39,274 nt of DNA from SAR86 cluster bacterium (lineage in GTDB: Bacteria > Pseudomonadota > Gammaproteobacteria > Magnimaribacterales > D2472), in contig QOPE01000002.1 of the NCBI GenBank assembly GCA_003331565.1, positions 1 through 39,274 of the forward strand, written 5' to 3'. The stretch's first letter is position 1; every line of letters begins with the position of its first letter. A program made the position numbers and the translations under genes. Positions 1,604 to 17,331 of the stretch are shown one piece after another. Under the pieces are notes generated by a model. The model was not told the DNA's origin. It ran no database searches and saw only the letters and a list, made by a program, of their open reading frames with translations.

Positions 1604-2803
1604 ATGGTTACTCGAAGTGATTTTAACAAGTACATATTGCCTGTATATAATCCAGCTAAATTTATTCCAAAAAAAGCAAAAGGCAGTTATGTATGGGATC
1701 AAAATAATAATAAGTATCTTGATTTTGCTTCAGGTATTGCCGTATCAAACCTAGGTCATTGTCATCCAACTTTAGTAAAAACATTAAATGCGCAGTCAAA
1801 AAATCTTTGGCATCTTTCAAACGTATTAGCAAATGAGCCTGCATTAAAGCTGGCAAAATTAATTTGTAATAAGACATTTGCCGAAAAAATCTTCTTTACA
1901 AATTCTGGTGCAGAAGCTGTTGAAGGAGCTGTGAAGACAGCAAGAAAATATGCTTCAACTAATTTTTCAAACAAAAAAAATGAGATCGTTGCTTTTAATG
2001 ATGCTTTTCATGGCAGAACGATGATGGCTATTGCTCTTAATGGCTCCAAAAGGATGACCGAAGGTTTTGGTCCTATGCCAGGTGGCATTAAGCAGCACCC
2101 ATTTAATCAAGTAGATGGTTTAAAAAAGATCATCAATAAAAATACTGCTGCGGTTGTAATCGAACTAATTCAAGGTGAGGCTGGAATAGTGCCTGCAAAA
2201 AAAGTATTCATTAACGAAATTAGAAAGTTATGTAAGAAAAATAATGCTTTAATTGTTATAGATGAAGTGCAATCGGGTGTAGGTAGAACTGGTCATCTTT
2301 ATGCATATGAGAAGTACAACATAAAGCCTGACATTCTTTGTTCTGCTAAAGGCATGGGAAATGGAATACCAATAGGTGCAATTCTTACTACTAATAAAGT
2401 TGCAAAGGCAATGCATGTTGGCGCTCATGGTTCAACATATGGAGGTAATCCTCTGGCTTGCTCTGTTTCATATGAAGTATTCAAAGAAGTATCTAAAAAA
2501 AGCTTTCTTAATTCGGTAATAAAGAAAGAAAAAATTTTTTTAAGCTTATTAAATGATTTAAACAAAAAATATAATTGTTTTACTGCAGTTAGATCAGCAG
2601 GATTATGGATTGGTCTTGAGCTTAACTCTAAAATAGAGAATTTAACCCTTCAAAATATTATGTCTTCTGCATACGATGAAGGATTAATGATTTTAAAAGC
2701 AAACAATAATACTCTTAGGCTCGCACCAGCACTGACAATTTCAGAAAAAGAGATTAAATTGGGTGTTAAAAAATTAGAAAAAAGTCTTTCAAGAGTCCTC
2801 TGA
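1604..2803 (+). CDS. argD: Acetylornithine/succinylornithine aminotransferase (class III PLP aminotransferase)
   Basis: Track ORF trimmed to the ATG at 1604; [33 protein letters not shown] is collinear with the E. coli ArgD N-terminus. Motifs [12 protein letters not shown] and [11 protein letters not shown], with the PLP lysine in CSAKGMG. Confidence 0.85.
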
Positions 2804-5038
2804 CACATCGAAAACTTCAGTAACCCTATCAACTTTTCGATATCCTTGCGGCAACATTAAGCCTCGCTTAGCTCTATCTGAGAGATAATTTTCAAGATCT
2901 TTAACACTGAAATTTTTAAATTGTTTCCCGCTATGAAGTTGCAGCTTTGACTCTGCTCCTAACAAACATACATGTTTCATTGCTTCTTCACCACTTTCAA
3001 ATTTAGCCTTGGGAATATTAATGATTTTATTTCCTTTTCCTCTTGGAAGAATTGGTAAGCTGTCTAATGAAAAAATTAACATTCTTCCTATAGAAGAAAT
3101 GGCAACAATTAACTGATGATGCGGGAGTATCTTAGTTGGCGGAACTAGTTTAGATTGAGGAGTTAATTTAATAAAATTCTTACCGGTCTTCTTGTTTGAT
3201 AGAGTATTCCTAATTTCACTGATAAATCCATATCCAGCAGATGTTGAAATAATAAATTTTTCTTCATCAGCGCCAGCTATTACTCCTTGAAAAGACACAC
3301 CTGACTCGGCACTTACTCTACCAGTAATTGGCTCACCCATGCCTCGAGCTGAGGGCAACGAGAAAGATGGTAACGAAAAACATTTTCCCGTTGAATCAAA
3401 GAAATTTGCCATTTGATTATTTCTACCTTGTGCGAAATGTCTTAGGCCATCATCGCCTCGATAATTTAATGAGCTTGGATCAACATCATGTCCTTTTGCT
3501 GCTCTGATCCATCCTGCTTTTGAGAGGATGATGGTTATTGGTTCGTTGGAAATGACTTCCTCTTCAGAAAAAGCCTTTGCGTTAGAGCTTTCAATAAGCG
3601 GAGAATTCCTTTCATCTCCAAACTGTTCTTTAATTTCAAGCAATTCTTTCTTTATATAAGTCTTTAACCTTGATTTGGAGCCAATGATCTTTTCCAAATC
3701 TTTTTTTTCATCCTTTAATAGCTTGCTTTCTTCTTCAAGTTTTATTTGTTCGAGTTTTGCAAGCTGTCTAAGCTTAATCTCAAGAATCGCATTGGCTTGA
3801 ATTTCCGAAATCTTAAATTTCTTAATAAGTTCTTTTTTAGGTTCATCACTTTGTCGTATGATTTTAATGACCGTGTCTATGTCCACATAAACAATTAAGA
3901 GGCCTTCAAGGATATGCAATCTATCATCAACTTGCTGAAGCCTATGGTTAAGTTTTTTAAGCACCGTCTCTTGTCTAAACTTCAGCCACTCATAGAGTAA
4001 GTCTCTAAGGCCAAATACCCTTGGCGATCCAGATCGGTCAATCAAGTTAATGTTTGCTCTGTAGTTCTTTTGTAAATCTGTAGTTGCGTATAAATGGTTC
4101 ATAACCTCCTCACCATCAATACGATTAGATTTAAGAGAGATAACAAGCCTAACTGGCTCTTGGTGATCAGCCTCATCTCTAAGGTCAACAACCATTGGAA
4201 GCTTCTTTTTGTTCATCTGGTCTGCAATCTGCTCTAAAATTTTTGATCCTGATGCTTGGTGTGGAAGAGCATCAATAATAATATCATTGCCCTCCTTTAC
4301 CCATTTTGCTTGCATTTTAAAACCGCCTCTGCCGGTTGTATAAATTTCAATGAGCTCTTCATCTGAAGCAATTATTGGCGCATGATTTGAAAAATCTGGA
4401 CCTTTGACATGCTTGAGTAGTTTTGAAATGTCAGCTTTGGGATTATCAAGTAGATAAATACAAGCATCTATAACTTCTGAAATGTTATGAGAAGGAATAT
4501 CTGTGGCCATGCCCACAGCGATTCCTGTAGTTCCATTCAACAAAATATTTGGAACTTTAGATGGCAAAATTATTGGTTCCGAAAGAGAGCCATCAAAGTT
4601 AGGCTGCCAATCAACTGTGCCTAACTTAATCTCTTCGAGCAAAAGATTTGCATATGCAGTTAATCTTGATTCTGTATATCTCATTGCAGCGAAAGATTTT
4701 GGATCATCCTGTGTTCCCCAATTTCCTTGCCCATCAACAAGGGGATATCTAAAAGAAAAGTTTTGTGCCATCAAAACCATAGCCTCATATGCAGCACTGT
4801 CTCCATGCGGATGAAATTTACCGATTACATCTCCTACGGTTCTTGCAGATTTCTTGTACTTTGATCCAGCATTTAAACCTAGCTCGCTCATTGCATATAG
4901 GATCCTTCTTTGAACAGGCTTCATTCCATCACCAATATTTGGAAGCGCACGATCTAAGATGACGTACATCGAATAATTTAAATATGATTCCTCTGCATAA
5001 TCTCTTAGTTTGATTGCATCAATTTTTTGGTTACTCAT
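2789..5038 (-). CDS. parC: DNA topoisomerase IV subunit A
   Basis: 749 aa with a type IIA topoisomerase A-subunit N-terminus ([19 protein letters not shown]) and the active-site Tyr in AAMRYTES. I see no GyrA box (QRRGGKG). It is translationally coupled (ATGA) to a short, ParE-sized B subunit. Confidence 0.9.
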
Positions 5039-6932
5039 ATGTCCACCCTAGCAATTTTTCCTTTTTTTTCGAGCCATGTCTTTCTATCCCCTGCCCTTTT
5101 CTTTGACAAAAGAAGATCCATCATTGCATTGACATTGTCTTTTGAGTCTATGGTAAGTTGAACCAATTTTCTGGTTGCTGGATCCATAACAGTCTCTCGA
5201 AGCTGGCTTGGGTTCATTTCACCAAGCCCTTTAAACCTTTGAATATCTATTTTTGGGTTTCCTTTTTTAGAACTAAGCTCTTTTACAATCTTATCTTTTT
5301 CTTTTTCATCAACTGCATATAATTTTTCTTTTGCGCAATCTATTCTAAAGAGTGGCGGCATCGCAACATAAATTCTGCCATCTTGAATAAGATTTTTATA
5401 ATGCCTTAAAAAAAGTGCACATAGCAGTGTTGCTATATGTAACCCATCTGAGTCAGCATCTGCGAGGATACATATTTTTCCATACCTGAGGTTTGATAGG
5501 TCTGTTTCTCCAGGATTAACACCCATAGCAGTGGCTAAGTCTTTAATTTCCTGAGACTTAATTATTTCACTGCTTTCTAGATCCCATGTATTGAGAATTT
5601 TTCCTCTGAGCGGCATGATTGCTTGAAAGCCTCTTTCGCGTGCTTGTTTTGCAGAGCCCCCAGCTGAATCACCCTCAACTAAAAAAAGTTCAGTTTCATT
5701 GAGATCGATTGAATTGCAGTCAGATAACTTACCTGGAAGAGCGGGGCCTTGAAAGGTTTTTTTACGTGCGACTGTTTTAACTTCTTTTGATCTTTTCTGA
5801 GCAGATTCAATAGCAAGGTCAGCAATTAGTTCTGCCTCTTCAGTATGCTGATTGAACCAAATACTTAAAGAATCTTTTGTAGCTGCACTGACAAAGGATT
5901 GATGATCTTTAGAATCTAATCTTTCCTTGGTTTGACCGGCAAACTGTGGGTTTTTAAGTTTTGATGAAACAACAAATGCGGCATGATTAATTGTGTCGTC
6001 AGAAGTTAGCTTAATCCCCTTTGGCAAAAGATTTCTAAATTCACAAAATTCTTTAATTGCATCCAAAAGTCCAGATTTAAAGCCATTAAGATGTGAGCCA
6101 CCTTGTGCAGTTGGAATCAGGTTTACATAAGATTCGTTAAGGAGTTTTTTGGAGTTATTCATAACCCAGTTGATAACAAAATCAATTGAATTATCTTCGT
6201 TAGATTTTGAACTTAAAATTGAATCTTTTAAGAGAAACTCTTCCTCTTTAATCTCATCACCTAAATAACCTTCTAAACCATTCGGATACTCCCAAGTTTC
6301 TTTATCGTCTTTTTTAAATTCACTTGCAAATGAAATTTTTAAACCCGGACATAAGACTGATTTTGCCTTTAGTAAATGTTTTAATTTTTTAACATCAACT
6401 TTCGAGGATTCAAAATACTGAGGATCAGGAATAAATCTTATGCTTGTTCCTGTATTCCTGTTGCCAACCTCGCCTGTAACTTTTAATTCTTTTGATTTTT
6501 CTCCGCCACTAAAACTCATTTCATGAATTTTTCCATCTCGCTTTATCGTTGCTGATAAATTTGTTGATAAGGCGTTCACAACGGATACACCGACTCCGTG
6601 AAGCCCACCAGAAAAGTTGTAATCCTCACCAGAAAATTTTGCTCCAGCATGGAGCTTACATAAAATTAACTCGACACCGCTTACTTTATGTTCAGGATGA
6701 ACATCAGTTGGCATCCCTCTTCCATCGTCACTTACTTCAATGAAACCATCCTTAAAAAGATTGATCTTAATTTGAGAGCAATGCCCAGCTAAAGCTTCAT
6801 CAACTGCATTATCTAGGACTTCTTGAATCAAATGATTAGGACAGCTGGTATCGGTATACATACCTGGCCTTTTTCTTACAGGATCTAATCCAGACAGTAC
6901 CTCAATGGATTTAGCGTCGTATTGTTTAGCCA

Positions 6933-10102: not shown

Positions 10103-10912
10103 ATGCCTGAATTACCTGAGGTTGAAACATCCGTGAGAGGTATTTCTTCTCTCAGCGGAGAAAAGATTCAGCAAATAAAAGTACATATCCCAAAATTAAG
10201 ATGGCCAATCAAGGAAAATGATTTTCTTGATCTTGAGGACAGAAAGATAGTTTCTATTTATAGGCGAGCAAAATACATAATTTTTAATTGTGAAGAAAAA
10301 TTTTTAATACTTCATCTCGGAATGACTGGAACCCTTCGGATAATCCAGACGAAATCTAATGAATATAAAAAACATGATCATGTTGAGTTGATTTTTAAAA
10401 AAAATAAGTTGCTTTTTAATGATCCAAGAAGGTTTGGCTCTATACACATAACTAATAATATAAATGAGCATTTTTTAATTAAAAACCTGGGAGTAGAGCC
10501 ATTAGATGAAGTATTTAATGAAGATTACTTATATACAAAAATCAAGAAATCCAATGCATCCATCAAGTCACTTATCATGAACCAAAAAATAGTTGTTGGT
10601 ATAGGCAACATATATGCAAATGAAATTCTTTTTTTATCAAGGATCAATCCTAGAAAAAAAGGTAAATACATTACAAGAAAAAATGCATCTGAAATTACTA
10701 AGCACTCAAAAAGTATCCTAAGAAAAGCAATTAATGCAGGCGGTACAACATTACAAGATTTTTTTTCGCCCTCTGGGAATAAAGGATATTTTAAAGTTGA
10801 CTTAAATGTTTATGATCGAGAGGGAGAGAAATGCTTCGATTGCTCAAACTTGATAAAAAGAATTGAACAAAACCAAAGGTCAACATTTCTTTGTAGAAAT
10901 TGCCAGAGTTAA
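10103..10912 (+). CDS. mutM: Formamidopyrimidine-DNA glycosylase
   Basis: N-terminal MPELPEVE (catalytic Pro2/Glu3) and a C-terminal C4 zinc finger CFDC..CRNC. Confidence 0.95.
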   Translation: MPELPEVETSVRGISSLSGEKIQQIKVHIPKLRWPIKENDFLDLEDRKIVSIYRRAKYIIFNCEEKFLILHLGMTGTLRIIQTKSNEYKKHDHVELIFKKNKLLFNDPRRFGSIHITNNINEHFLIKNLGVEPLDEVFNEDYLYTKIKKSNASIKSLIMNQKIVVGIGNIYANEILFLSRINPRKKGKYITRKNASEITKHSKSILRKAINAGGTTLQDFFSPSGNKGYFKVDLNVYDREGEKCFDCSNLIKRIEQNQRSTFLCRNCQS

Positions 10913-11388
10913 GAAAATTTACTTTTTAAAGCTTTTTCAATATGCAACGGAACAAATCTAGATACATCTCCGCCGAATTGTGCAATCTCTTTCACGAGAC
11001 TGGAAGAGACGTAAATTAGCGTGTCTTTAGGTGTAAAGAAAATGCTTTCAATATCCGGTGCTAGGCTCCTATTCATCGTTGCTAACTGAAATTCATATTC
11101 AAAATCAGCGACAGCCCTAAGCCCTCTAATGATAGCTATTGCATTATTTTCTCTAGCCAAATCAACAGTTAATTTTTTTGAGTAGCCTATAGCTCGAATT
11201 TTGCTGTTACCAGAAAAAACTTCATTTAAAAGATCTAGGCGCTCATCTGTACTGAAAAGTGGATTTTTAGATTTAGATTCTGCAACCCCTATTACAACTT
11301 GATCAAATAACGATGCGGCCCTTTCTACAATATCAATATGGCCGAATGTGATTGGATCAAATGAACCTGGATATATAGCGACTTTCAT
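10909..11388 (-). CDS. coaD: Phosphopantetheine adenylyltransferase
   Basis: 159 aa with MKVAIYPGSFDPITFGHIDI (nucleotidyltransferase HxGH-type motif) and full-length CoaD-like sequence. Confidence 0.95.
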   Translation of the reverse strand: MKVAIYPGSFDPITFGHIDIVERAASLFDQVVIGVAESKSKNPLFSTDERLDLLNEVFSGNSKIRAIGYSKKLTVDLARENNAIAIIRGLRAVADFEYEFQLATMNRSLAPDIESIFFTPKDTLIYVSSSLVKEIAQFGGDVSRFVPLHIEKALKSKFS

Positions 11389-11408: not shown

Positions 11409-12320
11409 TTAATTCTTCATCAAAATTTTTACAGTATTAGGTGATTGATAGCCAATCATCTTTGCTAGCTCATGAACTTGTTTGGTGCGTGTAAAGTTTT
11501 TTCTAAAAACGAGGCGAATTTTTCTATTGGCACTTTGGTCATCAATTTTCCTTACTAAAATTCCCATGTCGGTTGTCCATGCTGACTGAAGTGCTAATGC
11601 TGGGACAAGGGTGCAGCCCTCGCCTGCAGCAACAAGGTTAATCAGCGTTTCAAGACTTGAAGCAATGGTATTTAAATCAGATTCATCTTGTTGTGAGATT
11701 AAATTTGAAATCTGATTTCTGAGGCAGTGAGTTTTATTTAATAACAAAACATTTTGAGAAGCCAGATCTTTAGGTTGCACAGAGTTTAAATCCTCTAACT
11801 GATTACCTCTCTTGAAGGCAACCCAAAATGGCTCCTCAAATAAATCAATTGAGGTAAAGGCAGAATTTTTTTCTCCATCACTGATTAGCAATACATCAAG
11901 TTCACCAGAGCTCAATTTATCCAAAAGAATTGAAGTTACATTCTCATCAAAAATTACCTTTGCTTCAGGAATAGTTTTTTTAAGATACAAATAAAATTTT
12001 GGGATTAGATAAGGGCCTAATGTTGGGATGATCCCAACTTTTAATGGAAGTGACCAAGGGTTTTTACTTTTGAATGAAAATTCAGTTAAAGCATCAACAT
12101 CCTGAATAATAACTCTTGCTTTAGAAATTATTTCTTCTCCAAATGTTGTTATTGATAGCGATTTTGTTGTTCGTTCAAAAATTTTATTACCTAAATAATC
12201 CTCAAGTTTTTTAATTTGGCCGCTAAGCGTAGGTTGTGAAACATTGCAATGCATAGCTGCTTTATAGAAGCTTTTATAGTCAGCGACAGCAATAATGTAT
12301 TTAAAATCTCTTATATTCAT
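11409..12320 (-). CDS. oxyR: LysR-family peroxide-sensing regulator, OxyR-like (Cys199 present, Cys208 absent)
   Basis: HTH block HCNVSQPTLSGQIKKLEDYLG. THCLRNQ places the Cys at residue 199 by my count. SSLETLINLVAAGEGCTLVPALA aligns with E. coli OxyR. The gene is divergent from a rubrerythrin gene. Confidence 0.8.
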   Translation of the reverse strand: MNIRDFKYIIAVADYKSFYKAAMHCNVSQPTLSGQIKKLEDYLGNKIFERTTKSLSITTFGEEIISKARVIIQDVDALTEFSFKSKNPWSLPLKVGIIPTLGPYLIPKFYLYLKKTIPEAKVIFDENVTSILLDKLSSGELDVLLISDGEKNSAFTSIDLFEEPFWVAFKRGNQLEDLNSVQPKDLASQNVLLLNKTHCLRNQISNLISQQDESDLNTIASSLETLINLVAAGEGCTLVPALALQSAWTTDMGILVRKIDDQSANRKIRLVFRKNFTRTKQVHELAKMIGYQSPNTVKILMKN

Positions 12321-12372: not shown

Positions 12373-12409
12373 ATAGTTTTTATCTATATATAAAATAGGA
12401 AATAACTTT
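12373..12409. promoter_or_regulatory. Candidate OxyR operator (four phased ATAG/CTAT elements) in the oxyR-rbr divergent promoter region
   Basis: ATAG(12373-76)-N7-CTAT(12384-87)-N7-ATAG(12395-98)-N7-CTTT(12406-09). This matches the E. coli OxyR pattern ATAG-N7-CTAT-N7-ATAG-N7-CTAT at 15 of 16 core positions. An extra CTAT lies at 12366-69. Confidence 0.45.
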
Positions 12410-12464
12410 TTGTATTTAATTTCATAATAACAATAATAATGTAATCAATATTAAGGAGATTGTT

Positions 12465-12881
12465 ATGGAACTTAAAGGATCAAAAACTGAGCAAAACTTA
12501 AAAGATGCATTTGCTGGAGAATCTCAAGCCAACAGAAGATATCTTTATTTTGCACAAAAAGCTGATGTAGAAGGTTTTAACGATGTTGCTGCTGTTTTCA
12601 GATCAACTGCTGAAGGAGAGACTGGTCATGCACATGGTCATCTAGAATATCTTGAAGCTTGTGGCGACCCTGCAACTGGCGAGCCATTTGGTGACACGAT
12701 TGCTAACTTAAAATCAGCTATTGCTGGTGAAACTCACGAGTATACAGACATGTATCCAGGTATGGCTAAAAGTGCAAGAGATGAAGGTTTTGATGAAATT
12801 GCTGATTGGTTTGAAACATTAGCAAAAGCAGAGAGATCACATGCTAATCGTTTCCAAAAAGCTTTAGACGAAGTAGCTTAA
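12465..12881 (+). CDS. Rubrerythrin-family diiron protein lacking the rubredoxin domain (erythrin-like)
   Basis: AAGGAG RBS 7 nt upstream. [23 protein letters not shown] plus ExxH motifs ([25 protein letters not shown]). Only 138 aa, with no C-terminal CxxC pairs. Confidence 0.9.
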
Positions 12882-12900
12882 CTTTAATTCTTTTAGATTT

Positions 12901-12927
12901 AGGGCTGGCAACAGCCCTATTTTTATT
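12901..12927 (+). terminator. Intrinsic terminator/attenuator hairpin between rbr and the Fe-S protein gene
   Basis: AGGGCTG-GCAA-CAGCCCT is a 7-bp stem (5 G:C pairs) with a GNRA loop, followed by ATTTTTATT. It runs directly into the ATG at 12928. Confidence 0.6.
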
Positions 12928-14289
12928 ATGGCAGAAAAAATAGAGTCATCGAGAGAAGGCGGTATAGACGCTCCAACAAGGCATGCTCTTGATTGGACCA
13001 ATCCGGATTTCTATAACCAAGATAAAATTGATGATGAACTTTATCGCACCTTTGAGATTTGTCATGGTTGTAGGAGATGTGTAAGTCTATGTGATGCTTA
13101 CCCTACCCTGTTTGATTTAATTGATGAATCGCCCTCATACGATATCGACACTGTTGAAAAAAGTGACTATAACAAGGTTGTCGACGAATGCTACATGTGT
13201 GACTTGTGTTACCAAACGAAATGTCCATATGTTCCTCCACATCCTTGGGCACTTGATTTTCCTCACTTAATGCTTCGCGCTAAAGCAAAAAAATTTAAAG
13301 ATAAAAAAGATGGCTTGCAAAAAAGAATCAGAAATAAGCTATTAAGTAGTACTGACTTCACTATGAAATATGGCTCGATTCCTCTGGTTGACGTAACAAT
13401 TAATACTCTAAATGGTTCACAAATCGTTCGAAAGCCGCTTGAAGGCTTGCTTGGAATACATGCAAAAGCTGATTTACCAAAATTTAAATCAAATAATCTT
13501 AAAAAGAGAGTAGAAAAACTAACTAATTCTGTTGATAAAGTTCAGGCAAATGAAAGCACTACTGGAAAAGTGATGGTTTTTGGAACCTGTTACTGTAACT
13601 ACAGTGTTCCAGAGGTTGGCGAAGACCTATTTACTGTTTTCAGGCATAACAACATACAAACAGAACTTATGCAGCAAGAAAAATGCTGTGGTATGCCTAA
13701 ATTTGAGCTTGGTGATTTAGAGTCTGTAAAAAAAGCAAAAGAATATAATGCGCCTAGGTTCTTAGAAGCAATTAATGATGGGTATGATATTGTTGCTGCT
13801 GTCCCTTCATGCGTTTTGATGTTCAAACAAGAGCTGCCTCTAATGTTTCCTGGTGATGAGGAACTACAAAAAATTAAATCCAGAATATTTGATCCATTTG
13901 AGTACTTAAGTCTTCGTGATAAAGATGGGTTGCTAAAAAAGGATTTCAAAATAGAGTTTGATAAAATTTCATATCAAGCTGCATGCCATCAGAGAGTGCA
14001 GAATATTGGTCCAAAAACAAAAGAAATACTCTCGCTAATTCCAGGTGCAGAGATAGACATGATTGAGAGATGTTCAGGTCATGACGGAACTTATGCAGTA
14101 AAAAAAGAATCGCATGAAAAGTCTATTAAGATTCGAAAACCAGTAGTGAGTAAAGTTGAGAGGTTTGATCCAAAAACCTTTACATCGGATTGCCCAATGG
14201 CTGCTAAGCATGTTGGCAATGGAGTAACAACAGAAACAGAAACAGTTTTGCATCCGATGAGTATTCTCAAAGATGCATATGGATTATAA
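12928..14289 (+). CDS. (Fe-S)-binding oxidoreductase, HdrD/GlpC/GlcF-like, with two CCG domains
   Basis: Ferredoxin-type clusters CHGCRRCVSLC and CYMCDLCYQTKCP. CCG-type repeats (..EKCCGMP..PSC.. and ..RCSGHDG..SDCP..). Confidence 0.85.
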   Translation: MAEKIESSREGGIDAPTRHALDWTNPDFYNQDKIDDELYRTFEICHGCRRCVSLCDAYPTLFDLIDESPSYDIDTVEKSDYNKVVDECYMCDLCYQTKCPYVPPHPWALDFPHLMLRAKAKKFKDKKDGLQKRIRNKLLSSTDFTMKYGSIPLVDVTINTLNGSQIVRKPLEGLLGIHAKADLPKFKSNNLKKRVEKLTNSVDKVQANESTTGKVMVFGTCYCNYSVPEVGEDLFTVFRHNNIQTELMQQEKCCGMPKFELGDLESVKKAKEYNAPRFLEAINDGYDIVAAVPSCVLMFKQELPLMFPGDEELQKIKSRIFDPFEYLSLRDKDGLLKKDFKIEFDKISYQAACHQRVQNIGPKTKEILSLIPGAEIDMIERCSGHDGTYAVKKESHEKSIKIRKPVVSKVERFDPKTFTSDCPMAAKHVGNGVTTETETVLHPMSILKDAYGL

Positions 14290-14311
14290 AAAATACCTTA
14301 GGAGAAAATAA

Positions 14312-14896
14312 ATGGTAGAGCTATCAAAAGATGATTTATTTACATTAGAAGAATATTCTGAAAAGAGATCAAGTTTTAGATCTGGCGTTTTGGATGAAAA
14401 AAAGAATAGAGGTGTCATGGTAGGAAATCATGTTCACTTAATTTTTGAAAATAAAAATACGATTCAGTATCAGGTTCAAGAAATGTTAAGGATTGAAAAG
14501 ATTTTCGAAGCCAAAGACATTCAGGAAGAATTAGATGCCTACAATCCTTTAATACCGGATGGTAAAAATCTAAAAGCTACAATGCTGATTGAGTACGTTG
14601 ATGTTGAGATTAGGCGTGAGGAACTTACAAAACTTAAAGGAATCGAAAGAAACGTATGGTTCAAAGTTGGTGATACTGAAAAGGTTTATGGAATCGCTGA
14701 TGAGGATCTAGAGCGAGAAGATGACACAAAAACTTCTGCAGTTCATTTTATGAGATTCGAGTTCAATGAAACCCAAATAGCTAAATTTAAAAATGGCTCT
14801 GGTGTAGTTTTAGGTATTGATCATAATTACTATGATGTCCCACCAACGACACTTCATCATGACATTGTAAATGCATTAGCATCAGACTTTAGCTAA
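14312..14896 (+). CDS. DUF3501-like protein (function unknown)
   Basis: AGGAG RBS upstream. Blocks QYQVQEMLRIEKIFEA, EELDAYNPLIPDG and TSAVHFMRFEF match my memory of DUF3501 family members. There are no cofactor motifs I can recognise. Confidence 0.7.
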   Translation: MVELSKDDLFTLEEYSEKRSSFRSGVLDEKKNRGVMVGNHVHLIFENKNTIQYQVQEMLRIEKIFEAKDIQEELDAYNPLIPDGKNLKATMLIEYVDVEIRREELTKLKGIERNVWFKVGDTEKVYGIADEDLEREDDTKTSAVHFMRFEFNETQIAKFKNGSGVVLGIDHNYYDVPPTTLHHDIVNALASDFS

Positions 14897-14981
14897 AAAA
14901 ACTATTTATTAAGGGCGTAAAAACTCTTGCAAATACCAAAGATCCTAAAAGGAATATAAGCAAGATTGTTTTTTTATTCAT
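14889..14981 (-). CDS. Possible 30-aa hydrophobic micro-protein coupled to the monooxygenase gene
   Basis: Not in the ORF track (too short). The ATG shares its A with the TGA stop of the upstream gene (TGATG at 14983..14979). The translation is MNKKTILLIFLLGSLVFARVFTPLINSFFS, with a KK n-region followed by a hydrophobic core. No homology evidence. Confidence 0.3.
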   Translation of the reverse strand: MNKKTILLIFLLGSLVFARVFTPLINSFFS

Positions 14982-16432
14982 CAAATTATATTAAATGAAT
15001 TAATATCAGGTTTTGACATTGCCTTTTTAAAGTCTTCATAAGTCCATGGCCAGCTTGCTGGAATTCCTGAAGCATTTAGGTACCAGCTTGAACAACCACC
15101 TTTATACCATACGGTTTTCTTTGCAGCCGCAGCTCTTTTCCTTTCATAGGTTTCTGTTACATTAGCCTTAACATCAATATGGCATTGTCTTTTTTTAATT
15201 ATCTTTATGAGCTCAAGTATGTAATTCATTTGTTGTTCGGCTATATCAATTAGAGAAAAATTTCCTACGGGACCATTAGGACCGTTTAATAAAAACAAAT
15301 TTGGGAATTTAGGAACAGCGATTGACAGATAAGCTTTTGGATATTCTTTCCAATAATCATTCAGGGAAATTCCGTCAATACCAAATGCTTTAATTGGCCT
15401 TAAAAATTGGTCAACCTTAAATCCTGTTGCAAAGACAATTACATCAAGATCAATGACATTACTGTCTATCAATTCAATTCCATCATTAGTAATTTTTTTT
15501 ATTGTCTTGGAAATTAATGTACATTCAGGTTTTTGAATTGCTGGATAGTAATCTGATGACCAAATTAACCTTTTACATAGTGGTGTGTGATTAGGCGTTA
15601 GCTTTTTCTTAAGTTCCTCGTTATGTATATTCTTTTCTAGATTTTCCTTGCACGCAAAAGCTATTTCATTTGCACCAACCGAGTCTTTATTAAGAAGAGC
15701 TTGGGAATAGATTTCTACCGCATTAAAGTATTCTTCAAAATTCATAGCTTCAGTTAGATTTTTAGGGTCTCGGAATGACAATTTTTCCTCATCGCTGAAG
15801 CTTCCATTCTCAAGGGGCATCATCCATTGTGCAGTTCTTTGGAAATGGTACAAATGCTTACATTTTCCTGATAAGGCACTTACTATTTGTATCCCGGTAG
15901 ATCCTGATCCGATAACTCCTATCTTTTTGTCTTTTAATGAAATCTCATGATCCCACCTAGCGCTATGAAACTTATCTCCATTAAAATTTTTTATACCTTC
16001 TATATCTGGTAAATGTGGATGATGCAAAACTCCTGTTGCTCCGATTACAATTTCGGCTTTGTAAATCTGTGACTTGTTAGTAGTAATCTCCCAAACACCT
16101 TCTTTAAAAGAAAGACTTATGATTTCAGTCTTGAATAAGCAAATTTGATCAAGATCATTTTTAAAAAAAATACCTTCAAAATACTCACGAATCTCTGGCC
16201 CAGAGGAATAATAATTTGACCAATTAGGATTTCTTTCAAAGCTATAAGTGTAGTGATGGGATGGAACGTCACAATGTAAGCCAGGATAACTATTGTCTCT
16301 CCAGGTTCCACCTACCCCATCCGCCTTTTCAAAAATAGTTATGTTTTTAATTCCAAATTCTTTAAGTTTAATTGCAGCCAGGATACCTGCCATTCCTGCA
16401 CCAATTATTGCCACCTTTAGATTTTCTGACAT
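14981..16432 (-). CDS. Class B flavoprotein monooxygenase (Baeyer-Villiger/FMO type)
   Basis: FAD Rossmann motif VAIIGAGMAG, GGTWRDNSYPG, the BVMO fingerprint FNGDKFHSARWD (FxGxxxHxxxWD) and a second dinucleotide fold GVIGSGSTG. Confidence 0.85.
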   Translation of the reverse strand: MSENLKVAIIGAGMAGILAAIKLKEFGIKNITIFEKADGVGGTWRDNSYPGLHCDVPSHHYTYSFERNPNWSNYYSSGPEIREYFEGIFFKNDLDQICLFKTEIISLSFKEGVWEITTNKSQIYKAEIVIGATGVLHHPHLPDIEGIKNFNGDKFHSARWDHEISLKDKKIGVIGSGSTGIQIVSALSGKCKHLYHFQRTAQWMMPLENGSFSDEEKLSFRDPKNLTEAMNFEEYFNAVEIYSQALLNKDSVGANEIAFACKENLEKNIHNEELKKKLTPNHTPLCKRLIWSSDYYPAIQKPECTLISKTIKKITNDGIELIDSNVIDLDVIVFATGFKVDQFLRPIKAFGIDGISLNDYWKEYPKAYLSIAVPKFPNLFLLNGPNGPVGNFSLIDIAEQQMNYILELIKIIKKRQCHIDVKANVTETYERKRAAAAKKTVWYKGGCSSWYLNASGIPASWPWTYEDFKKAMSKPDINSFNII

Positions 16433-16446
16433 AAGTTTTTGTTAGA

Positions 16447-17331
16447 TTAATGATTTTTCATTTGAGAATCTAAATATCCAATTAGCTGTAAGTCATTCCT
16501 ACTTTTTGCAGAAAACTTGTTGTTGTTACTCCAGGCATCGTGATTAAGTTCTCCAAATGGCTCCACAATATCTCCAGTAACAGTAACCCTTTGAATGATT
16601 CGCTCACCTTCGAAATTATTTACAACAAAGTGTTGTGTTGATCTATTGTCCCAAATCGCAATTGTATTCTTTGACCATTTATACCTAACAGAGAAATCTG
16701 GTTTTTGTACCCATTTTGTAAGAAACGATAAAAGTTGTTCACTTTCTTCATGACTAAGCTCAACAATTCTTCTTGTGAAATGCTCATTGACATATAAAAC
16801 TGCTTCACCCGTATCTGGATGTTTTCTGACAACTGGATGAATCATCATTTTTTCAGGATGCATATGCGGTGAAGCATCATGAAGAGCGGTAATTGATGAG
16901 CATAAATCCTGCATTGGTTTAGATAATGCTTTGAATGCGGCAACTAAGTCGGTCCACATGGTATCGCCACCGACATCAGGTGCTGCAGTCATCTTAAGGA
17001 TAGACATTAAAGCTGGTCTTTTTTGAAAAGTTAGATCCGTATGCCATTCGTCTGCTATTCCTCCAGTGGATGCAGCTAGTTCAAAGATCTTTGGATGTTT
17101 TACGTTTGGATTATTAATATGCGGATGTCCTTCCAGCTCACCAAATAGCTCACCAAAGGCTACGTGCTCTTCAATTGTTAGTTCTTGGTCAGGAAAAAAT
17201 ATAACCTTATGTTCTGAGAGTATTGCTCTAAATTCCTGCACGTCATCTTTTGAAATATTTTTTAAATCAAAATCATTAATTTCAGCACCGATGGTTGTTG
17301 AAAGTTTTGAAATATTTTTAAAAAGACTCAT
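16447..17331 (-). CDS. TauD/TfdA-family Fe(II)/2-oxoglutarate dioxygenase
   Basis: HxD iron ligands in EWHTDLTF and the distal block WDNRSTQH. At 294 aa it is TauD-sized. Confidence 0.85.
   Translation of the reverse strand: MSLFKNISKLSTTIGAEINDFDLKNISKDDVQEFRAILSEHKVIFFPDQELTIEEHVAFGELFGELEGHPHINNPNVKHPKIFELAASTGGIADEWHTDLTFQKRPALMSILKMTAAPDVGGDTMWTDLVAAFKALSKPMQDLCSSITALHDASPHMHPEKMMIHPVVRKHPDTGEAVLYVNEHFTRRIVELSHEESEQLLSFLTKWVQKPDFSVRYKWSKNTIAIWDNRSTQHFVVNNFEGERIIQRVTVTGDIVEPFGELNHDAWSNNNKFSAKSRNDLQLIGYLDSQMKNH

Follow-up and report, generated by a model that had tools for sequence, protein, structure and literature searches.

The DNA analysed here, a stretch of 39,274 nt of contig QOPE01000002.1 (assembly GCA_003331565.1) from a SAR86 cluster bacterium that as a whole is called the window and to whose positions all coordinates refer, carries on the forward strand three adjacent and co-oriented genes that are the subject of this work. 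The first is rbr (12465..12881, 138 aa), encoding an aerobic-type, that is, rubredoxin-less, rubrerythrin (Rbr); the second is rfo (12928..14289, 453 aa), encoding a protein (RFO) with a predicted pair of [4Fe-4S] clusters and a CCG domain; and the third is a gene encoding a DUF3501 protein (14312..14896, 194 aa). They were taken from the list of open reading frames (ORFs) and assigned by Pfam. The spacer between rbr and rfo is 46 nt and that between rfo and the DUF3501 gene 22 nt; a ribosome-binding site AAGGAG (12453..12458) precedes rbr and another, AGGAG (14300..14304), lies inside the 22-nt spacer, both being read directly from the sequence. Divergent from rbr, on the reverse strand, lies a gene for an OxyR-like LysR regulator (11409..12320, 303 aa; Pfam HTH_1 and LysR_substrate). 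An earlier note on this DNA, made from its letters, had described the three reading frames with their positions, lengths, spacers, AGGAG site and sequence motifs, and all of these are present as described; the families found with the Rubrerythrin, Fer4, CCG and DUF3501 profile models, as given below, are also those that it named.

It is noted at the outset that the locus is an ordinary SAR86 member of a known system. The triad was named the 'aerobic-type rubrerythrin' system (RBR + RFO + DUF3501) by Cardenas, Quatrini and Holmes (Front Microbiol 2016, PMC5114695) from genome comparisons, in which RFO was proposed to compensate for the lost rubredoxin domain, and the adjacent, co-oriented rbr, COG0247-type Fe-S/CCG and DUF3501 genes by which that system is recognised are what the window contains. 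The triad and the hypothesis have been repeated since then (Gray et al. 2020, PMC7050145; PMC7852563; PMC7760498; PMC12154734), and the triad has been described adjoining oxyR in Sideroxydans (Zamkovaya et al. 2020, PMC7852563), in Acidihalobacter (Khaleque et al. 2020), beside dps in some genomes, and in Crenarchaeota and in protist mitochondria, with mitochondrial targeting, a coherent eukaryotic distribution and an inferred presence in the last eukaryotic common ancestor. The novelty implied by the earlier note, which had put forward the same triad with the same hypothesis, is therefore withdrawn. Four features discussed below are not found in Cardenas et al. 2016 or Gray et al. 2020, namely the OxyR-type box without an adjacent oxyR, the hairpin after rbr, the Cys3/Ser/His/Asp signature of RFO and the one-cysteine OxyR-like regulator. 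Within SAR86, the single-cell genome AG-917-F05, found by scanning reference genomes with an alignment of DUF3501 sequences, has the OxyR-like regulator, Rbr, RFO and DUF3501 protein at 97-100% amino-acid identity and in the matching arrangement, so that the window belongs to a marine gammaproteobacterium of the SAR86 clade, as its 35% G+C would also suit.

The rbr product matches the Pfam Rubrerythrin model (PF02915) at 3.3e-30 over residues 11-133 of 138, which leaves no room for a rubredoxin domain, and it also matches Pfam Ferritin at 6e-10. It has one Cys and no CxxC, its C-terminus lies five residues past the Pfam domain, and the NCBIfam rubrerythrin model is covered only over positions 3-145 of 194. 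All seven diiron ligands (E19, E52/H55, E89, E92, E123/H126) are intact and align residue for residue with those of Burkholderia pseudomallei Rbr (BpRbr) and of sulerythrin. With the profile match and the aligned ligands, the assignment to a rubrerythrin lacking the rubredoxin domain holds. According to a 2025 preprint on BpRbr structures, that protein is a domain-swapped dimer without the ferritin-type storage cavity, E53 and E124 are the ligands mutated in its metal-free variant, it binds several metals promiscuously, and it is reported to be induced under oxidative stress. The ferriperoxin of Hydrogenobacter thermophilus, a homologue that likewise lacks the rubredoxin domain, reduces both H2O2 and organic hydroperoxides when supplied with NADPH and FNR, its disruptant showing no aerobic growth, and peroxidase activity has been reported for sulerythrin as well. 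From the identity of about 85% to BpRbr and from the published activity of ferriperoxin, we infer that the window Rbr would likewise be a domain-swapped dimer with peroxidase activity.

In RFO, the Pfam Fer4_17 dicluster domain (residues 45-101) is followed by a CCG match (PF02754, 1.8e-10, residues 215-300). Both ferredoxin-type motifs are complete (C45xxC48xxC51xxxC55 and C88xxC91xxC94xxxxC99), and they are followed by a helical linker and then by an HdrB/LutA-like double CCG domain with C221, C253, C254 and C295 in the first half and C353, C382 and C422 in the second. Across 73 orthologues 15 of the 16 Cys are invariant, 7 of these being in the CCG region. Of the two CCG repeats claimed earlier, the first is called by Pfam; the second is not called, and it is upheld by its homology to the second half of GlpC/YkgE and by its position inside the HdrB/LutA fold match. 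The second half reads C353-H...E-R-C382-S-G-H385-D-G...D-C422-P-M-A, that is, three Cys together with an invariant Ser, His and Asp. The fold match comes from comparing the AlphaFold2 model of an RFO homologue with the folds in the PDB, where LutA (E 1e-8, TM 0.82) and HdrB (E 3e-6, TM 0.63) were retrieved, spanning both CCG halves; by sequence, with single and profile searches, RFO gave no meaningful match in the PDB, so that only the fold comparison found LutA and HdrB. No transmembrane-like segment is seen in Rbr, RFO or the DUF3501 protein.

The earlier note had assigned RFO to the HdrD/GlpC/GlcF architecture, which is right for architecture and fold, whereas membership of GlpC or HdrD is contradicted by the scores, the Cys count and the partners. 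The name GlpC, used for RFO by several sources, is rejected because RFO stays below the equivalog cutoffs, scoring 213.6 vs 278 with PRK11168, its best NCBIfam model, and 139.7 vs 279.9 with TIGR03379, because no glpA or glpB is present in the neighbourhood in the window, and because the second CCG motif differs. HdrB has two complete CX31-39CCX35-36CXXC motifs. Assignment of RFO to HdrD/HdrB is likewise rejected, as RFO has 4 + 3 conserved Cys vs 5 + 5 and no hdr partners nearby, the likeness to the HdrB fold being real at an identity of 17-19%. Neither hdrE nor lutB/lutC genes are found near rfo.

Two further observations on RFO are noted here. Residues 7-23 (12946-12996) contain the motif REGSLEAPxRHxxDW, in which E10, G11, A15, P16, R18, H19 and W23 are conserved at ≥95%, and which occurs in all RFOs and not in GlpC/YkgE; the motif is a candidate for the docking of Rbr or the DUF3501 protein. 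A 376-aa metagenomic protein (P0274), 97% identical to the window RFO, also has a Ribosomal_L4 Pfam match, which probably reflects a chimera or a wrong gene call on a short contig.

The third protein matches PF12007 over its full length (8e-68, 228.6 bits vs a cutoff of 25), a family of 2368 clusters at 50% identity. It matches PDB entry 3fjv by sequence at 1.8e-54, and its AlphaFold2 model (pLDDT 94.3) superposes on that entry with a TM of 0.92. Among the PDB folds the model matches only 3fjv, all others being at TM <0.35, and the fold is thus an orphan alpha/beta fold that gives no hint of function. The window protein has no Cys and the family has no conserved Cys; R19, F45, E46 and E57 are invariant, and further Glu, Arg, Gln, Tyr and His positions are nearly so. 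DUF3501-RFO fusions in Nitrosomonas were noticed already in PMC5114695, and we find about 16 clusters of such natural proteins of about 660 aa, each consisting of RFO, a linker of 25-35 aa and DUF3501, so that the parts follow the gene order. As Rosetta-stone evidence, the fusions indicate that RFO and the DUF3501 protein physically associate. No extra Pfam domain is found in the N- or C-terminally extended DUF3501 members, and no Rbr-DUF3501 fusion was seen. The DUF3501 protein is probably an accessory or docking subunit of RFO, to which two indirect facts point: some genomes have it fused to RFO, and in others it is the sole partner of Rbr.

The association of the three genes was studied by scanning reference genomes with an alignment of 9 close DUF3501 sequences, which gave at least 597 DUF3501-encoding loci, 80 of which were analysed (L001-L080). 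Among the 66 reference loci having at least 2.3 kb upstream of DUF3501, colinear rbr-rfo-DUF3501 occurs in 64, from Gamma- and Betaproteobacteria. Across loci the median spacers are 86 nt (rbr-rfo) and 23 nt (rfo-DUF3501). The published survey of 4461 genomes counted 185 with the complete triad, 25 with RBR and DUF3501 alone, and only 2 that broke the association. The earlier statement that the triad recurs in other proteobacteria is confirmed by the 64 loci, and the published co-occurrence is near-exclusive. Based on the synteny, the fusions and the published co-occurrence, the functional linkage of rbr, rfo and DUF3501 is strongly supported. The genes recurring around the triad are ispA, parE/parC, proB, LysR genes and, in some Betaproteobacteria, a gene for a small secreted protein. 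The latter is a protein of about 170-190 aa with a signal-peptide-like N-terminus, encoded on the same strand just 3' of DUF3501 (median distance 31 nt) in 9 betaproteobacterial loci, those with a secreted-type ORF at this place including L018 (148-723 and 720-1238) and L027 (6582-7157); it does not occur in the window, and in Burkholderiales its gene could belong to the operon as a fourth one.

The control region of the window points to peroxide. An OxyR-type tetrad, ATAGTTTTTATCTAT-ATATAAA-ATAGGAAATAACTTT, is located at 12373..12409 on the forward strand, agrees with 15 of the 16 specified bases and ends 55 nt before the ATG of rbr. With up to 2 mismatches allowed, the 39-kb window has no other match, and chance would give 0.02. 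In other loci, within 250 nt upstream of rbr, a tetrad with up to 4 mismatches is present in 23 of 67 (dinucleotide shuffles: mean 0.62, maximum 4), and one with up to 3 mismatches in 14, against 0.06 in shuffles, with a full 16/16 match in two; these tetrads mostly end 65-110 nt before the rbr start, and positions that were not scored are conserved too. Only 7 of 60 other loci have a divergent LysR gene as a neighbour, and the tetrad is found even where there is no adjacent oxyR. Between the box and rbr, a sigma-70 scan found no convincing promoter: TTGTAT (12410-12415) abuts the box, and the -10 element is ambiguous in a spacer of 14% G+C. The regulator itself had been called oxyR. This stands in so far as OxyR is its best NCBIfam model, its best PDB matches are all OxyR and the box is of OxyR type, and it does not stand fully because the score is 233 bits vs the equivalog cutoff of 329 and the resolving Cys is missing: the peroxidatic Cys is kept (THCLRNQ, equivalent to C199 of E. 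coli), with an Ile or a gap at the resolving C208. Judged from these residues, the regulator may be an OxyR variant with one sensing cysteine, responding by sulfenylation rather than by disulfide formation. Moreover, rbr is listed in the OxyR regulon of Rhodanobacter. The predicted box, the activity of ferriperoxin and the Rhodanobacter regulon together support a link of the triad to peroxide.

Another regulatory element lies between rbr and rfo. A terminator scan found a terminator-like hairpin (12900..12927, forward strand, the stem-loop being 12900-12919) with an 8-bp GC-rich stem, TAGGGCTG/CAGCCCTA, a GCAA loop and then the T-tract TTTTTATT, which abuts the ATG of rfo; rfo has no Shine-Dalgarno sequence. 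The folding energy is -19.2 kcal/mol (z = -2.8). With the criterion of a perfect stem of at least 6 bp including at least 4 G-C pairs, applied to 70 rbr-rfo spacers of the 80 loci, a hairpin occurs in 55 (33% in shuffles and 20/68 in coding-sequence controls), and a hairpin with a T-rich tail in 29 (4.5% in shuffles and 1/68 in the controls). The element probably acts either as a leaky terminator or by stabilising the 3' end of the rbr transcript, and its conservation across Gamma- and Betaproteobacteria suggests an excess of Rbr over RFO and the DUF3501 protein.

The base composition of rbr is counted together with the hairpin for differential expression, its G+C content at the third codon position (GC3), 17%, being the lowest among the neighbouring genes. 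The G+C content is 39.3% in rbr, 30.6% in the gene that the earlier note called mutM and 35.4% in the window; thus the higher G+C of rbr observed earlier is real and fits an Ala/Gly/Glu-rich protein, whereas it does not extend to the third position. A foreign origin of rbr is rejected, since the surplus G+C is confined to codon positions 1 (58%) and 2 (42%) and GC3 is the lowest in the neighbourhood; the pattern reflects the Ala/Gly/Glu-rich amino-acid composition together with a strong bias to A/T-ending codons.

Based on the above, the reading that we favour, and hold to be moderately probable, is that the locus encodes an OxyR-controlled three-component hydroperoxide reductase, with Rbr as the diiron peroxidase present in excess, RFO as the electron-transfer component and the DUF3501 protein as the docking partner. 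The pathway would proceed as follows. Peroxide would oxidise the single sensing Cys of the OxyR-like regulator, leading to activation of the rbr promoter. Most transcripts would end, or be stabilised, at the hairpin after rbr, while read-through would give smaller amounts of RFO and the DUF3501 protein, with the result that the peroxidase would exceed its reductase. The diferrous site of the Rbr dimer would reduce H2O2, and probably also organic hydroperoxides, to water or alcohol, and the resulting diferric site would be re-reduced by electrons passing through the two [4Fe-4S] clusters of RFO. The HdrB/LutA-like CCG domain of RFO would collect these electrons from a general cellular pool, a quinol or a low-molecular-weight or protein thiol being the most plausible donor, because related CCG proteins (GlpC, HdrD, DsrK, SdhE and LutA) act on such substrates and there is no gene for a dedicated dehydrogenase in the vicinity. 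An electron-transfer role of RFO is favoured by its two complete 4-Cys motifs, by the 7 invariant Cys of the CCG region and by the fold match to HdrB and LutA. The DUF3501 protein, having neither Cys nor a cofactor-binding fold, would be tightly bound to RFO and would probably dock Rbr. What the data establish are the protein identities and ligands, the gene order, the OxyR-type operator, the hairpin and the fusions; induction, electron flow and docking are inferred.

Several points weigh against this three-component reductase, and they are gathered here. RFO is absent from the 25 genomes of PMC5114695 that have RBR and DUF3501, and in two Burkholderiales contigs of our set (L018 and L068) rbr is followed directly by DUF3501 without RFO. 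Conversely, the two exceptions among the 66 loci, both from Chromatiaceae (L052, rfo at 2228-3547, and L058, rfo at 4584-5924), have rfo-DUF3501 with no adjacent rbr. The upstream neighbour in L058, which from its sequence we take to be a nuoN-like membrane-protein gene, is followed by an ORF-free gap of about 600 nt; in these two loci either rbr lies elsewhere in the genome or the rfo-DUF3501 pair serves another acceptor. When the neighbouring ORFs of the 80 loci were clustered, no conserved redox partner or donor-specific gene was found near the triad, and as no other redox gene recurs there, the module looks self-contained. The second CCG half of RFO is without two of the five Cys of GlpC, and because of this loss neither the clusters that it holds nor its chemistry can be taken to be HdrB-like. 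The AlphaFold2 model of a natural fusion, used as a proxy for the RFO:DUF3501 complex, has a pLDDT of 79.5 and a pTM (predicted TM-score) of 0.64, and the interface is unreadable from these summary scores. In the literature we found no experimental test of RFO or DUF3501, and the 2025 preprint states the replacement of rubredoxin by operon partners as a hypothesis only. Finally, the turnover of ferriperoxin in vitro with NADPH and FNR alone means that a dedicated reductase is not strictly required.

It is also conceivable, if rather doubtful, that RFO-DUF3501 is a reductase of a new type, passing electrons from the quinol, glutathione or thiol pool to a diiron peroxidase, with a cluster or metal site in the second CCG half, formed by its three Cys and the invariant Ser, His and Asp, unlike those of HdrB and GlpC and with DUF3501 as a new docking fold. 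If this is true, there would be a respiratory-chain- or thiol-linked H2O2 reductase conserved in Proteobacteria, in Crenarchaeota and as far as early eukaryotic mitochondria, and streamlined marine bacteria, SAR86 among them, could have in it their main inducible defence against peroxide.

The sufficiency of NADPH and FNR for ferriperoxin in vitro leads to a different scheme, in which generic reductases (FNR, ferredoxin, flavodoxin) reduce Rbr, while RFO and the DUF3501 protein metallate, repair or reactivate the diiron site, DUF3501 being an iron- or Rbr-binding chaperone that acts via its conserved carboxylate-rich helix. This scheme would also accommodate the promiscuous metal binding of BpRbr, by which correct metallation could matter in vivo, the invariant residues of DUF3501, which are mostly Glu, Arg, Gln and Tyr (with E46, E57, E62, E112 and H171) and never Cys, the genomes having Rbr and DUF3501 only, and the sub-stoichiometric RFO and DUF3501 implied by the hairpin. 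We nevertheless consider it unlikely, for a protein with two [4Fe-4S] clusters and a CCG domain would be elaborate for the task of a chaperone, the close co-inheritance with an electron-transfer protein and the fusion to it are more in keeping with catalysis, and a sub-stoichiometric amount would suit a catalytic reductase just as well.

Slightly less credible again is the scheme in which RFO-DUF3501 is first of all a dehydrogenase of one particular metabolite or thiol, similar to LutABC, GlcDEF, GlpABC and Hdr, for which Rbr provides an electron sink to H2O2 or O2, so that the purpose is the oxidation of the donor, for example in disulfide formation, and peroxide removal is secondary. That the nearest CCG relatives, GlpC, LutA/YkgE and HdrB, all work in substrate-oxidising or disulfide-reducing complexes speaks for it, and the invariant Cys3/Ser/His/Asp of the second half could form a specialised active site. 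By contrast, the triad comes without a gene for a flavoprotein or any other dehydrogenase subunit, the fold of DUF3501 is not one that binds cofactors, and both the OxyR-type control and the defective aerobic growth of the fpx mutant point to defence. As to the scheme in which Rbr is a Dps-like ferroxidase or iron buffer in oxidative stress and RFO-DUF3501 mobilises or reduces the bound iron, its membership of the ferritin-like superfamily, the position of the cluster beside dps in some genomes and the several metals bound by BpRbr are outweighed by the seven intact diiron ligands, by the identity of about 85% to a dimer without the storage cavity and by the peroxidase activity demonstrated for ferriperoxin and sulerythrin, and we regard it as very improbable.

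Returning to the three-component reductase that we favour, its interest lies in the fact that the system is widespread, and that the source of its electrons and the part played by DUF3501 pose a real biochemical question, which has been in print since 2016. To this the present analysis adds modestly the conserved OxyR box, the hairpin after rbr and the distinctive second CCG site. For biochemistry, the box, the unequal stoichiometry suggested by the hairpin and the Nitrosomonas fusion, which is a ready-made single-chain construct, should be helpful.

Note also the genes around the locus. Two reverse-strand genes converge on the triad, one for an FMO-like flavin monooxygenase (14981-16432, 483 aa) and one for a TauD/TfdA-family dioxygenase (16447-17331, 294 aa); they may be a pair for the oxidation of organic N or S compounds typical of marine heterotrophs, and nothing evident connects them with the rubrerythrin genes. 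On the other side lie a 269-aa ORF (10103-10912, forward strand), presumably mutM as the earlier note named it, and a convergent 159-aa ORF (10909-11388, reverse strand), which we take to be coaD-like, both names resting on inspection of the translations by eye. The 3' ends of the two ORFs share 4 nt, which fits a streamlined, tightly packed genome.

Finally, we compare the locus with known systems. With the classical Rbr of Desulfovibrio vulgaris (1b71/1ryt), which the window Rbr matches at 6e-29, it shares the diiron four-helix bundle and the presumed peroxide-reducing chemistry, whereas the classical protein has a C-terminal rubredoxin-like FeCys4 domain as the electron relay, which the window Rbr does not have and for the job of which separate proteins are proposed. 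Closer are BpRbr (4di0, 8fuh, 9onm; about 85% identity, 7e-75 to 4di0 and 9onm), which has the same diiron ligands and likewise lacks the rubredoxin domain, and sulerythrin (1j30, 4e-51), which is also rubredoxin-less. It is on BpRbr, sulerythrin and ferriperoxin, rather than on the window Rbr, that the biochemistry was done, the assays of ferriperoxin having used FNR and NADPH and not its own RFO and DUF3501 partners. With GlpC, LutA and HdrB relatives RFO shares the architecture of a 2x[4Fe-4S] ferredoxin-like part and a double CCG domain, and with GlpC/YkgE of E. coli it shares the C...CCG...C pattern of the first CCG half. In the second half, by contrast, GlpC has CCGIAG...CxxC (CETC) where RFO has CSGHDG and a single C-terminal Cys (CPMA), and GlpC is without the conserved N-terminal REGSLEAPxRH extension. 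From the aerobic-type system of 2016 the window locus is not essentially different: the three families are the same, with RFO belonging to COG0247 and DUF3501 to PF12007, and the genes stand in the same order.

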